From the NCBI RefSeq assembly GCF_003334315.1, contig NZ_QOWR01000077.1: 14,750 nucleotides of DNA, one strand, 5' to 3'. The position numbers and the translations under genes were made by a program. This stretch comes from Escherichia coli. Its GTDB lineage: Bacteria > Pseudomonadota > Gammaproteobacteria > Enterobacterales > Enterobacteriaceae. The notes below the pieces were generated by a model. That model saw nothing but the letters and a program-made list of their open reading frames with translations, searched no databases and was not told the origin of the DNA. The number at the start of each line of letters is the position of its first letter. Position 1 is the stretch's first letter. This document shows positions 10,494 through 14,297 of this stretch, one piece after another.

Positions 10494-11873
10494 ATGGAAC
10501 AGATAACAAAACCGCATTGTGGTGCACGGCTGGATCGCTTACCGGATTGCCGCTGGCATTCGTCAATGTTTGCCATCGTCGCGTTTGGCTTGCTTGTCTG
10601 CTGGAGTAATGCCGTTGGTGGCTTGATCCTCGCGCAGCTGAAAGCGTTGGGCTGGACAGATAATTCCACCACAGCCACATTCTCAGCAATCACGACCGCC
10701 GGAATGTTTCTCGGTGCGCTGGTGGGCGGCATCATTGGCGACAAAACCGGTCGCAGAAATGCGTTCATCCTCTATGAGGCCATTCATATTGCCTCGATGG
10801 TTGTCGGTGCTTTCTCACCGAATATGGATTTCCTTATTGCCTGCCGTTTTGTGATGGGAGTTGGGCTGGGAGCTTTACTGGTTACACTGTTTGCTGGTTT
10901 CACCGAATATATGCCCGGTAGAAATCGCGGAACGTGGTCCAGTCGGGTTTCCTTTATTGGCAACTGGTCATATCCGCTCTGTTCACTGATTGCGATGGGA
11001 CTCACGCCGCTGATTAGTGCAGAGTGGAACTGGCGGGTACAACTGCTTATCCCTGCAATATTGTCGCTTATCGCTACGGCGCTGGCCTGGCGCTACTTTC
11101 CTGAATCCCCGCGCTGGCTGGAATCGCGCGGACGGTATCAGGAAGCCGAGAAAGTCATGCGGAGTATAGAAGAAGGCGTCATACGCCAGACGGGTAAACC
11201 TTTGCCGCCTGTGGTTATTGCTGATGACGGTAAAGCGCCACAAGCGGTGCCGTATTCAGCCTTACTGACAGGAGTATTACTGAGACGCGTGATATTAGGC
11301 TCTTGTGTGCTGATTGCCATGAACGTTGTGCAGTACACACTAATTAACTGGTTGCCAACAATATTCATGACCCAGGGGATTAATTTAAAAGACTCGATTG
11401 TTTTAAATACCATGAGTATGTTTGGCGCGCCATTTGGTATTTTTATTGCCATGCTGGTGATGGATAAAATTCCGCGTAAAACAATGGGTGTGGGGCTATT
11501 AATCCTGATTGCGGTGCTCGGATATATCTATTCACTGCAAACCAGTATGTTGCTCATAACGTTGATTGGTTTCTTCCTGATTACTTTCGTCTATATGTAC
11601 GTTTGCTATGCCTCGGCAGTGTATGTCCCTGAAATCTGGCCGACAGAGGCCAAACTCCGTGGCTCCGGTCTGGCGAATGCGGTAGGGCGAATCAGTGGTA
11701 TTGCCGCACCTTATGCCGTTGCAGTGCTGCTCAGTAGTTATGGCGTAACGGGAGTCTTTATTCTTCTGGGGGCTGTTTCAATTGTTGTCGCAATTGCTAT
11801 CGCCACCATTGGAATTGAAACCAAAGGTGTCTCTGTTGAAAGTTTAAGTATTGATGCAGTAGCCAATAAATAA
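10494..11873 (+). CDS. ydjK: YdjK, major facilitator superfamily transporter (putative sugar-acid importer)
   Basis: 459-aa ORF with multiple hydrophobic segments and an MFS signature GDKTGRR between predicted TM2 and TM3. It starts 26 bp after ydjL, with SD GAAGGA. Confidence 0.92.
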   Translation: MEQITKPHCGARLDRLPDCRWHSSMFAIVAFGLLVCWSNAVGGLILAQLKALGWTDNSTTATFSAITTAGMFLGALVGGIIGDKTGRRNAFILYEAIHIASMVVGAFSPNMDFLIACRFVMGVGLGALLVTLFAGFTEYMPGRNRGTWSSRVSFIGNWSYPLCSLIAMGLTPLISAEWNWRVQLLIPAILSLIATALAWRYFPESPRWLESRGRYQEAEKVMRSIEEGVIRQTGKPLPPVVIADDGKAPQAVPYSALLTGVLLRRVILGSCVLIAMNVVQYTLINWLPTIFMTQGINLKDSIVLNTMSMFGAPFGIFIAMLVMDKIPRKTMGVGLLILIAVLGYIYSLQTSMLLITLIGFFLITFVYMYVCYASAVYVPEIWPTEAKLRGSGLANAVGRISGIAAPYAVAVLLSSYGVTGVFILLGAVSIVVAIAIATIGIETKGVSVESLSIDAVANK

Positions 11874-11889
11874 TACGGGTGGATTCAAA

Positions 11890-12933
11890 ATGAAAAATTC
11901 AAAAGCAATATTGCAGGTGCCGGGCACAATGAAAATTATTTCAGCAGAAATACCTGTGCCTAAAGAAGATGAAGTTTTGATTAAAGTAGAATATGTCGGT
12001 ATTTGTGGTTCAGATGTACATGGTTTTGAATCAGGCCCGTTTATTCCGCCTAAAGACCCAAATCAAGAAATTGGCCTGGGTCATGAATGCGCCGGGACGG
12101 TTGTGGCTGTGGGAAGCCGCGTGCGCAAATTTAAACCGGGGGATCGGGTAAATATCGAACCTGGCGTTCCTTGCGGTCACTGTCGTTACTGTCTGGAAGG
12201 CAAATATAACATCTGCCCGGACGTTGATTTTATGGCGACACAACCCAACTACCGCGGCGCATTAACGCACTATCTGTGTCATCCGGAGAGCTTTACTTAC
12301 AAACTGCCCGACAATATGGACACGATGGAAGGGGCGCTGGTGGAGCCTGCCGCAGTCGGGATGCATGCCGCGATGCTGGCAGATGTTAAACCGGGTAAGA
12401 AGATAATTATTCTGGGAGCAGGTTGTATTGGTTTGATGACGTTGCAAGCGTGCAAATGCCTGGGAGCAACGGAAATTGCCGTCGTTGATGTGCTGGAAAA
12501 ACGTCTGGCAATGGCGGAACAGCTTGGTGCGACAGTGGTTATTAACGGCGCAAAAGAAGACACTATTGCACGCTGTCAGCAATTTACCGAAGACATGGGC
12601 GCAGATATTGTTTTCGAAACAGCGGGTTCTGCAGTCACCGTTAAACAGGCACCTTATCTGGTAATGCGCGGCGGTAAAATTATGATTGTTGGTACTGTAC
12701 CCGGCGATTCGGCAATCAATTTCCTCAAAATAAATCGCGAAGTCACTATCCAGACGGTATTCCGCTATGCCAATCGTTATCCGGTCACGATTGAAGCTAT
12801 TTCTTCAGGGCGATTCGATGTGAAATCGATGGTGACGCATATTTACGATTATCAGGATGTACAACAGGCATTTGAAGAGTCGGTTAACAACAAACGCGAC
12901 ATTATTAAAGGCGTTATTAAAATTAGCGATTAA
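11890..12933 (+). CDS. ydjJ: YdjJ, Zn-dependent medium-chain dehydrogenase/reductase
   Basis: 347-aa ORF with catalytic and structural zinc motifs (CGSD..H, CGHCRYC) and GAGCIG nucleotide-binding motif. It starts 16 bp after ydjK. Confidence 0.92.
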   Translation: MKNSKAILQVPGTMKIISAEIPVPKEDEVLIKVEYVGICGSDVHGFESGPFIPPKDPNQEIGLGHECAGTVVAVGSRVRKFKPGDRVNIEPGVPCGHCRYCLEGKYNICPDVDFMATQPNYRGALTHYLCHPESFTYKLPDNMDTMEGALVEPAAVGMHAAMLADVKPGKKIIILGAGCIGLMTLQACKCLGATEIAVVDVLEKRLAMAEQLGATVVINGAKEDTIARCQQFTEDMGADIVFETAGSAVTVKQAPYLVMRGGKIMIVGTVPGDSAINFLKINREVTIQTVFRYANRYPVTIEAISSGRFDVKSMVTHIYDYQDVQQAFEESVNNKRDIIKGVIKISD

Positions 12934-12953
12934 TTAATATGGGAGAACAGAAC

Positions 12954-13790
12954 ATGCTCGCAGATATCAGATATTGGGAAAACAATGCCACAAATAAACA
13001 TTATGCAATTGCCCATTTTAACGTATGGAATGCAGAAATGTTGATGGGCGTTATCGACGCAGCCGAAGAAGCGAAATCACCGGTTATTATTTCTTTTGGC
13101 ACAGGTTTTGTCGGGAACACCTCATTTGAAGATTTCTCTCACATGATGGTATCAATGGCACAAAAAGCAACGGTGCCGGTAATAACTCATTGGGATCATG
13201 GTCGGAGTATGGAGATTATTCATAACGCCTGGACTCATGGTATGAATTCATTAATGCGTGATGCTTCCGCATTTGATTTCGAAGAAAATATTCGCTTAAC
13301 CAAAGAGGCTGTCGATTTCTTCCATCCGCTGGGTATTCCGGTAGAGGCGGAATTAGGGCATGTCGGTAATGAAACCGTTTATGAGGAAGCGCTGGCGGGC
13401 TATCACTATACCGATCCTTACCAGGCGGCTGAATTTGTTGAACGTACGGGCTGTGATTCATTGGCTGTCGCCATCGGCAACCAGCATGGGGTTTATACGT
13501 CAGAGCCACAATTGAACTTTGAGGTCGTCAAACGCGTACGCGATGCCGTTTCTGTTCCGCTGGTTTTGCACGGTGCATCGGGGATCAGTGATGCCGACAT
13601 TAAAACTGCAATTTCGTTGGGTATCGCGAAAATCAACATTCATACGGAGCTCTGTCAGGCCGCAATGGTTGCAGTGAAAGAAAACCAGGATCAGCCTTTC
13701 CTGCATTTAGAACGTGAAGTACGTAAAGCTGTAAAAGAACGGGCATTGGAAAAAATTAAACTGTTCGGTTCTGATGGCAAAGCGGAATAA
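12954..13790 (+). CDS. ydjI: YdjI, class II (metal-dependent) aldolase of the tagatose/fructose-bisphosphate aldolase family
   Basis: ORF track start is 12939. I prefer ATG 12954 (MLADIRYWENN..., 278 aa) because SD GGGAGA lies 7 nt upstream. Matches YdjI as I recall it. Confidence 0.9.
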   Translation: MLADIRYWENNATNKHYAIAHFNVWNAEMLMGVIDAAEEAKSPVIISFGTGFVGNTSFEDFSHMMVSMAQKATVPVITHWDHGRSMEIIHNAWTHGMNSLMRDASAFDFEENIRLTKEAVDFFHPLGIPVEAELGHVGNETVYEEALAGYHYTDPYQAAEFVERTGCDSLAVAIGNQHGVYTSEPQLNFEVVKRVRDAVSVPLVLHGASGISDADIKTAISLGIAKINIHTELCQAAMVAVKENQDQPFLHLEREVRKAVKERALEKIKLFGSDGKAE

Positions 13791-13794
13791 TGAT

Positions 13795-14297
13795 ATGGAT
13801 AATCTCGACGTTATTTGTATAGGTGCCGCTATTGTTGATATTCCATTGCAACCGGTCAGTAAAAATATCTTTGATGTGGATTCTTATCCTCTTGAAAGAA
13901 TCGCAATGACCACCGGGGGTGATGCAATAAATGAAGCAACAATTATTTCTCGTCTGGGCCATCGCACAGCATTAATGAGTCGTATTGGTAAAGATGCCGC
14001 AGGGCAATTTATTCTCAACCATTGCCGCAAAGAGAATATTGATATTCAAAGCCTGAAGCAGGACGTCAGCATAGATACCTCTATTAACGTTGGACTGGTG
14101 ACGGAGGATGGCGAGCGGACGTTTGTCACAAACCGTAATGGCAGTCTGTGGAAATTGAATATTGACGATGTTGATTTTGCGCGGTTTTCTCAGGCGAAAT
14201 TATTATCACTGGCCAGTATTTTCAACAGTCCACTATTGGATGGTAAAGCGCTAACAGAAATTTTTACGCAAGCTAAAGCCCGGCAGATGATTATCTG
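13795..14297 (+). pseudogene. ydjH: ydjH (pfkB/ribokinase-family sugar kinase), truncated by IS1 insertion after about codon 167
   Basis: Reading frame MDNLDVICIGAAIVD...TQAKARQMII runs straight into the IS1 terminus at 14298 and stops 7 codons later on IS1-derived sequence (WVMTPTY*). I recall the intact protein as ~315 aa. The N-terminal pfkB GG motif (TTGGDAINEA) is present; the C-terminal ATP-binding part is missing. Start could alternatively be ATG 13774, in the same frame. Confidence 0.85.

Follow-up and report, generated by a model that had tools for sequence, protein, structure and literature searches.

The fall in GC content along the ydj operon of Escherichia coli: amino-acid composition and local codon bias in a single operon

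A drop in base composition that begins inside an open reading frame (ORF) can be read as the seam between two DNA segments of different origin or as the result of ordinary local bias, and the ydj operon of Escherichia coli raises the question of which reading applies. The operon lies at the end of a 14,750-nt stretch of contig NZ_QOWR01000077.1 (assembly GCF_003334315.1), which is referred to here as the window. The ORF list and megablast searches against complete E. coli genomes revealed the gene order yeaH-yeaG-mipA-yeaE-yeaD-gapA-msrB-yeaC, followed by ydjL-ydjK-ydjJ-ydjI and the start of ydjH. The ydj locus of the window is 99-100% identical to other E. coli alleles, with unchanged order and neighbourhood; it occupies the same place as the ydjLKJIHG operon of E. 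coli K-12, from which it differs by an ydjH gene that is cut by an insertion element, IS1, at 14298, while ydjG and the genes behind it are located outside the window. The composition feature ends at 14297, because IS1 occupies 14298 to the window end. Values for full-length genes were taken from an intact allele, locus L001 of E. coli CRE1540, in which ydjH, ydjG, ydjF and ydjE follow.

An earlier note on this DNA had described a fall in GC content along the operon, starting inside ydjK, and proposed either a mosaic origin or simply local codon and amino-acid bias. The fall is real but ordinary: it reflects amino-acid composition together with local bias in codon use, within one operon that is old and horizontally mobile. 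We give a probability of roughly 0.7 to the reading that several ordinary local effects on one coherent operon add up to the drop, and that it is not a seam between two origins. Its components are a dip inside ydjK, which resides in the first and second codon positions, and AT-rich synonymous valleys, which are centred on the junctions of the downstream genes. GC1, GC2 and GC3 denote the GC content at the first, second and third codon positions. The features are:

9391-10467, forward strand: ydjL, zinc-dependent dehydrogenase; GC 49.6%, GC3 about 0.504-0.507; neither end has an AT valley
10494-11873, forward strand: ydjK, transporter of the major facilitator superfamily (MFS); 53.8% GC at 10494-11252 (N-terminal part), 44.0% GC at 11253-11873 (C-terminal part)
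11253-11618, forward strand: amino-acid-driven dip in ydjK; GC1 0.34-0.44, GC2 0.28-0.36, GC3 0.46-0.54
11721-12042, forward strand: valley at the ydjK/ydjJ junction; GC3 0.32 in the last 50 codons of ydjK and 0.22 in the first 50 of ydjJ
11890-12933, forward strand: ydjJ, zinc-dependent dehydrogenase; GC 46.6%, GC3 0.437, gene middle GC3 0.49
12781-13106, forward strand: valley at the ydjJ/ydjI junction; GC3 0.40 in the last 50 codons of ydjJ and 0.36 in the first 50 of ydjI
12954-13790, forward strand: ydjI, class II aldolase; annotated start at 12954, ORF open from 12939; GC about 45%, GC3 about 0.42-0.43
13638-14019, forward strand: valley at the ydjI/ydjH junction; GC3 0.36 in the last 50 codons of ydjI; extends over the first 75 or so codons of ydjH, with GC3 0.26 in the first 50
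13795-14297, forward strand: 5' part of ydjH, sugar kinase of the PfkB family; about 168 of 315 codons precede IS1
14298-14750, transposase ORF on the reverse strand: partial IS1 that runs off the window end; outside the composition feature, whose right limit it sets

GC profile and the dip inside ydjK

The mean GC content is 51.1% at 9391-11279 and 44.9% at 11280-14297. In a binomial maximum-likelihood scan of 9391-14297, the best change point was found at 11253 (51.3% GC to the left, 44.9% to the right; log-likelihood ratio 9.7), which is 27 nt away from 11280, the position given in the earlier note. The difference of means is thus real and well located, and the two hand counts of that note are exact (53.3% at 10561-10620 and 35.0% at 11341-11400). 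The profile, however, is not a step, and the second sample is a local minimum and not typical of the AT-rich part. In 300-nt windows, the GC content oscillates between 0.39 and 0.52 along the ydj genes: it is 0.41 at 11251-11550, then 0.46-0.48 and 0.40, rises to 0.50-0.52 at 12001-12600, drops to 0.39 at 12751-13200, returns to 0.50 at 13351-13650 and ends at 0.40-0.45.

As background, we used 266 kb of the K-12 strain MG1655 with 181 genes, the ORFs of which were called in this analysis. The contrast is stronger than in fine-scale shuffles (p 0.00-0.02), but it no longer stands out when blocks of 150-300 nt are shuffled (p 0.10-0.16), and 23% of random 4.9-kb K-12 segments contain an equal or stronger change point. 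The notion of a significant step was therefore rejected. In the same sample, only 2.2% of the 3,018-nt windows reach a GC content of 44.9% or less, and the K-12 ydjJ-ydjE block (6.2 kb at 45.2% GC) is matched by 0.05% of windows. Further 300-nt minima of 0.39-0.41 are located at 301-600 (the yeaH 3' end and beyond), 3901-4200 (the yeaG-mipA gap) and 7951-8250 (the gapA-msrB gap) of the window; dips of the depth seen in the ydj genes are thus locally not rare. The cdgI-dgcJ region of K-12 (locus L003, 24600-28300), which is 8 kb away from the ydj cluster, has about 41.5% GC over 3 kb and lies below any part of the ydj operon.

Over all coding positions, GC1 contributes 18%, GC2 30% and GC3 52% of the left-to-right drop. 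Inside ydjK, the first two positions prevail. In 50-codon windows over 11244-11618, GC1 and GC2 go down to the values listed above, and GC3 holds. The YdjK residues 276-325, which cover the 35% sample, consist of 56% F/I/K/L/M/N/Y and only 14% G/A/P/R. The combined GC content of positions 1 and 2 is 0.528 in the N-terminal 253 codons of ydjK compared to 0.437 in the C-terminal 206, and GC3 goes from 0.557 to 0.449. The contrast at positions 1 and 2 is found in all 16 other enterobacterial ydjK orthologues (0.50-0.56 versus 0.42-0.46), whose hosts span GC contents of 46-58%, and has the same direction, but is weaker, in Sebaldella, Veillonella and others. The dip resides in codon positions 1 and 2 and goes with the protein in every enterobacterial host. 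It is a property of YdjK, the C-terminal half of which is rich in I/L/M/F/N/Y and poor in G/A/P/R, and not a recombination seam. The N- and C-terminal halves give an identical ranking of relatives, with the C-terminal half being the more conserved one, and no step in synonymous composition was detected at the putative joint, neither in GC3 across 11244-11618 nor in the amino-acid-corrected middles of the genes from ydjL to ydjG.

Synonymous valleys at the gene junctions

At the level of whole genes, GC3 in the intact allele is 0.504 for ydjL, 0.509 for ydjK, 0.437 for ydjJ, 0.423 for ydjI, 0.443 for ydjH, 0.465 for ydjG, 0.435 for ydjF and 0.477 for ydjE, against a K-12 background of 0.560 +/- 0.056. 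ydjJ, ydjI, ydjH and ydjF are thereby placed in the lowest 1-4% of the 181 K-12 genes and ydjG and ydjE in the lowest 6-7%, and ydjL and ydjK fall at the 14-17th percentile. A comparison of codon adaptation, which the earlier note had recommended, gave no separation of ydjL and ydjK from the three downstream genes: with ribosomal-protein genes, rpoA, tufA and fusA as the reference set, the codon adaptation index is 0.465 for ydjL, 0.297 for ydjK, 0.427 for ydjJ, 0.466 for ydjI and 0.356 for ydjH. ydjK thus has the lowest value, and codon adaptation was rejected as an explanation.

The GC3 values were corrected for amino-acid content by taking the deviation from the per-residue expectation under average K-12 codon usage, and each gene was divided into its end zones (the first and last 50 codons) and the remaining middle. 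The corrected middles are uniform along the operon, with -0.07 for ydjL and ydjK, -0.06 for ydjJ, -0.09 for ydjI and -0.07 for ydjH and ydjG; the middles of ydjL and ydjK are as mildly AT-shifted as those of the remaining operon genes. The deficit is found at the junctions: the corrected value is -0.23 at the end of ydjK and -0.29 at the start of ydjJ, -0.10 at the end of ydjJ and -0.19 at the start of ydjI, -0.15 at the end of ydjI and -0.28 at the start of ydjH, and -0.20 at the start of ydjG. No deficit is present at the start (+0.04) or end (+0.03) of ydjL or at the start of ydjK (-0.01). Valleys are therefore located at the K/J, J/I and I/H junctions and, beyond the window, at H/G, and GC3 of the start zone lies below that of the gene body in ydjJ, ydjI, ydjH and ydjG, but not in ydjL and ydjK. 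The lower gene-level GC3 of ydjJ, ydjI and ydjH results from these AT-rich synonymous valleys flanking the junctions. Together, the amino-acid-driven dip in ydjK and the synonymous AT-richness at the junctions bear out the simpler of the two explanations that had been offered, namely local codon and amino-acid bias.

Resolved into bins of 15 codons, the valleys are 45-75 codons wide. GC3 of ydjJ is 0.47, 0.13, 0.07 and 0.27 in the first four bins and 0.53 thereafter, that of ydjH does not exceed 0.33 over 75 codons, and the last 60 codons of ydjK are at or below 0.40; in these bins, the effect is not confined to the first 10-15 codons of the ydj genes. Compared to the middle of the respective gene, the ydjJ start, ydjH start and ydjK end rank at the 2nd-5th percentile among K-12 genes. 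The valley pattern thus lies in the tail of normal K-12 variation and is not unprecedented. Another AT-rich synonymous patch is located upstream of the claimed shift, in ydjL at 9691-9915, where GC3 is 0.26-0.36 in 50-codon windows and E. coli lies 0.19 below Citrobacter. Consensus scans for internal promoters and terminators in the valleys gave chance numbers (10 found versus 8.1 +/- 2.7 expected, and 6 versus 5.5 +/- 2.3, respectively).

Codon alignments with Citrobacter, Klebsiella/Raoultella and Yokenella revealed valleys at the same junctions. GC3 in valleys and middles is 0.33 and 0.49 in E. coli as well as in two other Escherichia species, 0.47 and 0.58 in Citrobacter, 0.50 and 0.63 in Klebsiella, and 0.50 and 0.57 in Yokenella. 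The deficits at the ydjK end, ydjJ start, ydjJ end, ydjI start and ydjH start are present in 90-100% of 18-20 non-Escherichia enterobacterial loci, and the within-gene GC3 residuals of E. coli, binned by 25 codons, are correlated with those of the other genera (r = 0.52, p = 8e-7). The synonymous third-site difference in the valleys is 0.435 and thus close to the 0.478 of the middles; in these alignments, valley sites turn over and yet remain AT-rich. Per-gene GC3 is flat in Citrobacter and Klebsiella (0.53-0.64) and stepped in Escherichia, the three species of which have nearly identical values. Because the middles track the host, this is mainly a difference in valley depth. The gene for the DeoR-family regulator YdjF is AT-rich in every enterobacterial host (GC 0.37-0.48, GC3 0.32-0.59; loci L016-L033, about 10900-11700 in each locus), including Intestinirhabdus, although its neighbouring ydj genes have a GC3 of 0.70-0.81.

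Phylogeny, distribution and history of the cluster

If the operon were a mosaic, ydjL and ydjK would be expected to have a different phylogeny from ydjJ, ydjI and ydjH, as the earlier note had suggested. Bootstrapped neighbour-joining trees of L+K and of J+I+H, with Sebaldella, Negativicutes and clostridial lineages as the outgroup, instead agree on the enterobacterial groupings tested. Escherichia, Enterobacteriaceae with Budvicia, and Enterobacterales without Gilliamella each received a support of 100/100 in the two trees, and neither tree lends much support to a Citrobacter/Klebsiella clade without Escherichia. All ydj genes rank the taxa by identity in the same order. A max-chi-square analysis of third positions along ydjL-ydjG, comparing E. 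coli with five other genera, revealed no synonymous breakpoint (p 0.18-0.90, at inconsistent positions); the sole breakpoint at the amino-acid level coincides with the beginning of ydjH and is due to the lower conservation of the proteins there. Congruent phylogenies had been named beforehand as the outcome that would speak against a mosaic, and the mosaic hypothesis therefore fails.

The cluster is also collinear in distant genera. A survey with one genome per species returned 80 loci. The ydjLKJIHGF genes are fully collinear in Sebaldella termitidis of the phylum Fusobacteriota (locus L009, 6400-13787), with amino-acid identities of 85% for L, 78% for K, 77% for J, 82% for I, 69% for H, 72% for G and 66% for F. 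The same arrangement is present in Herbinix, Megamonas, Lachnotalea and Veillonella, where YdjK is 73-75% identical. YdjI homologues of 81-87% identity occur in Lachnospiraceae, Sebaldella, Caproiciproducens and Agarivorans, and the range is 73-87% across Lachnospiraceae, Clostridium, Veillonella, Megamonas, Erysipelotrichaceae, Atopobiaceae and Synergistaceae, with Sebaldella at 82%. This distribution indicates that one catabolic cassette has been exchanged between phyla of gut anaerobes. In many Lachnospiraceae, a 52-55% identical MFS paralogue replaces YdjK, in some cases with additional sequence separating the homologues of ydjL and ydjK, and some members of this family (locus L011, 3596-8286; loci L034-L053) possess an ATP-binding cassette (ABC) system of two permeases and a binding protein and lack an MFS gene. 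The transporter slot of the cluster is therefore exchangeable in these lineages.

Within the Enterobacteriaceae, the arrangement gapA-msrB-yeaC-[ydjLKJIHGFE]-pncA-ansA is common to Escherichia, Citrobacter, the Klebsiella oxytoca group, Raoultella, Yokenella, Intestinirhabdus and one uncultured Enterobacteriaceae genome. The synonymous third-site difference between E. coli and Citrobacter is 0.44-0.53 for each of the ydj genes and 0.41-0.49 for msrB, yeaC, pncA and ansA. A recent arrival is thus not indicated: the site is shared by seven genera, and the synonymous divergence is not below that of the flanks, which argues that the cluster is old in the lineage. The closest non-enterobacterial clusters are found in hosts of 30-43% GC, and the enterobacterial copies form one tight set of clades amid far more diverse anaerobe lineages. 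We infer from these two observations that the cluster is an old import into the Enterobacterales from low-GC gut anaerobes, which has since largely been adjusted to its hosts.

Movement of the cluster seems to have taken place within the order as well. Other sites are occupied in Budvicia, Symbiopectobacterium, Enterobacillus and Gilliamella, from which it appears that the cluster has been relocated among the Enterobacterales, and the ydj proteins of Budvicia are 81-94% identical to those of E. coli despite the different genomic location. The ratio of the amino-acid distances E. coli-Citrobacter to Klebsiella-Citrobacter is 1.1-2.4 for the ydj genes, 0.6-0.9 for msrB, yeaC, pncA and ansA, and 2.5 for the near-invariant gapA. 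The synonymous difference between Citrobacter and Klebsiella is 0.31-0.41 for the ydj genes versus 0.39-0.50 for msrB, yeaC, pncA and ansA (loci L017-L029). The closer relationship of the ydj block between Citrobacter and Klebsiella/Raoultella and the displaced copy of Budvicia suggest that the block has been exchanged among members of the order. In Citrobacter braakii (locus L017, 2446-4164), ORFs of 426 and 137 amino acids are located between yeaC and ydjL; by eye, the longer one resembles a family-18 chitinase and the shorter one an HNH nuclease. The interval in E. coli measures only about 370 bp.

Of 5,426 complete E. coli genomes, 4,331 (80%) carry the ydj locus. As all 4,331 carriers are 98-100% identical, divergent alleles as a sign of recent recombination were rejected. 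The closest intact allele is that of strain 2013C-4991, which is 100% identical over 9391-14297. In the window, ydjH is broken off at about codon 168 by IS1 (terminal sequence GGTAATGACTCCAACTTATTGATAG...), and this exact ydjH-IS1 junction was found in none of the 5,426 complete genomes. The window probably stems from a Shigella or from an E. coli that is not represented among them. The secondary IS1 inside ydjH is the only mobile element seen, and the cluster borders were not searched for repeats. In different strains, IS1 insertions were observed in ydjE (CRE1540), ydjI (EC20-72C-1), ydjK (E1648) and at other positions of ydjH (12 genomes); two such loci are L001, 13665-14362, and L002, 6998-7695. 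IS1 prefers AT-rich targets, a preference that the recurrent hits in the ydj cluster fit. The repeated insertions suggest that the operon is dispensable.

Origin of the valleys and competing explanations

The composite of local effects on one coherent operon can be put together as follows. The ydjLKJIHGF genes travel as one unit, which may have entered the Enterobacterales long ago from low-GC gut anaerobes and then largely adjusted to its hosts. All six gene middles from ydjL to ydjG lie uniformly about 0.07 below the E. coli expectation at synonymous sites. The dip in ydjK is set by the amino-acid make-up of the C-terminal half of the transporter, and the AT excess of the distal genes is concentrated in the valleys at K/J, J/I, I/H and H/G, which are also present in Citrobacter, Klebsiella and Yokenella. 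AT-rich synonymous sites would finally have been retained near the downstream starts, most plausibly because a gain of G+C would there add mRNA structure around the internal ribosome-binding sites. The retention of the valleys through such a constraint on mRNA structure is the weakest step, and we regard it as tentative, with odds clearly below even. The descriptive account of the composition can be given with fair confidence, the selective account with low confidence.

AT-rich and weakly structured codon usage at gene starts has reportedly been described by Kudla in 2009, Gu in 2010, and Bentele and Goodman in 2013. The codon effect on translation initiation usually extends over about 10-15 codons. 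The ydj genes resemble this pattern in the depressed GC3 at the starts of ydjJ, ydjI, ydjH and ydjG, to which the 3' end of the preceding cistron with the next ribosome-binding site is added. They differ from it in the width of the valleys (45-75 codons), in the missing valley at ydjL/ydjK and in a depth far beyond the K-12 average of -0.03.

Several of these observations weigh against a selective origin of the valleys. They are wider than the usual initiation effect, with the lowest bins of ydjJ being codons 16-45 and not 1-15, and none is found at L/K. K-12 cistron starts after tight junctions deviate by -0.031 and those of other genes by -0.037, and without an extra AT shift after tight junctions in this sample, tight translational coupling was rejected as a general source of such valleys. 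The starts of ydjI and ydjG reach only the 12-20th percentile relative to their own gene middles, so part of the pattern may be chance. In other phyla, the valleys are weak (about -0.04), which fits a lineage-specific history equally well as selection. Because the enterobacterial loci are kin by descent and their synonymous sites are not fully saturated, the shared valleys are partly inherited. Furthermore, the background covers 266 kb of K-12, with ORFs that we called ourselves, and is neither the whole genome nor the source genome. That the valleys are a selected feature of the enterobacterial cluster, with host-directed GC gain everywhere except where it would disturb the expression of a downstream cistron, is possible but rather unlikely.

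The best-surviving rival to the composite reading is incomplete amelioration. Lawrence and Ochman are said to have put forward the amelioration model for compositionally atypical, horizontally acquired clusters. Under this explanation, ydjJ-ydjE would be comparatively recent low-GC foreign DNA that is drifting towards the composition of E. coli, and the gradient would reflect unequal progress. The ydj cluster resembles the islands of this model in its low GC3 relative to the genome, its patchy presence within the species (20% of E. coli genomes lack it) and its close homologues in distant phyla; ydjJ, ydjI, ydjH and ydjF are GC3 outliers, and collinear homologues exist in distant taxa, as expected for a horizontally acquired atypical island. 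The rarity of the 6.2-kb block among K-12 windows and the low-GC hosts of the nearest non-enterobacterial clusters fit as well, and the strongest change point of the 30-kb K-12 locus is located near the pncA/ydjE border. A recent arrival, however, would hardly share its chromosomal site with seven enterobacterial genera, diverge between E. coli and Citrobacter to the same extent as its flanks, or have a nearly identical GC3 in three Escherichia species. GC3 in the middles of its genes follows the composition of the host (E. coli 0.49, Citrobacter 0.58 and Klebsiella 0.63), and the deficit is not evenly spread but concentrated at the junction zones. We therefore consider incomplete amelioration improbable.

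It was also considered that nothing specific has to be explained and that the profile does not go beyond the usual local variation in GC content of E. coli coding DNA, with its structure being due to chance. The frequency of comparable change points in K-12 and the block shuffles are in line with this possibility, as are several junction zones that are unremarkable against their gene middles (12th-68th percentile) and the chance level of promoter- and terminator-like sites. Chance alone would, however, have to account for several neighbouring genes in succession that fall into the lowest 1-7% of GC3, for three end zones out of ten that do not exceed the 5th percentile, for valleys at the same junctions in 90-100% of the other enterobacterial loci and for the correlation of within-gene GC3 profiles across genera, and it appears slightly less probable still than amelioration.

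A third proposal holds that the AT-rich patches persist because H-NS-type silencers bind or nucleate on them and so keep silent an operon that is seldom used and is induced in the gut. It draws on the patches of 39-41% GC in a 51% genome, the foreign ancestry of the ydj cluster and the response of the operon promoter, which is active in the mouse gut and off in culture (PMC6561318). The window contains 30 matches to the high-affinity H-NS motif with two mismatches or fewer (17.8 +/- 4.5 expected), but these are not concentrated in 11280-14297, where 6 of the 30 fall into 20% of the window. The ydjF promoter is listed without an HNS flag in a genomic SELEX (systematic evolution of ligands by exponential enrichment) table (PMC3946193), and a literature search revealed no evidence for H-NS at the ydj locus. 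This proposal is very unlikely.

The least probable explanation is a mosaic in which ydjL and 5' ydjK come from one source and 3' ydjK and ydjJIH from another of lower GC, recombined near 11250: the change point at 11253, the GC3 of about 0.51 in ydjL and ydjK versus 0.42-0.44 in ydjJ, ydjI and ydjH, and the transporter slot that is occupied by a paralogue or an ABC system in many Lachnospiraceae would suit it, but GC3 has no step at 11253, where the dip resides in codon positions 1 and 2, the two halves of YdjK have the same order of relatives with the C-terminal half more conserved, the corrected middles are uniform from ydjL to ydjG, the trees are congruent without a synonymous breakpoint, and the whole cluster is collinear in Sebaldella and in other genera with a YdjK of 73-78% identity.

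The composite reading thus describes an operon that is unlike the recent arrivals of the amelioration model, as its site is shared across the Enterobacteriaceae, its divergence matches that of the flanks and its middles track the host. Local GC heterogeneity, accessory operons of low GC3 and AT-rich gene starts are already familiar, and the finding has little biological weight; its lesson is methodological. A GC change point within an ORF can arise from amino acids and a GC3 gradient from a few junctions, and profiles resolved by codon position and corrected for amino acids should therefore precede claims of mosaic origin. If selection on the valleys were true, they would provide a natural example of amelioration limited by constraint, which can be read from the sequence. 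The cassette itself encodes proteins named in RefSeq as L-glycero-L-galacto-octuluronate kinase (YdjH) and L-glycero-L-galacto-octuluronate aldolase (YdjI), an annotation that follows Huddleston and Raushel (2019), as cited in PMC9602453. Passage through the mouse gut activates the ydjL promoter (PMC6561318), in keeping with the presence of the cluster in gut anaerobes. As the cassette is common to Sebaldella, Veillonella, Megamonas, Lachnospiraceae and others at 66-87% amino-acid identity, its distribution points to a substrate that is available in anaerobic gut communities, and the shared cassette may be modestly useful for identifying the natural substrate of the operon.

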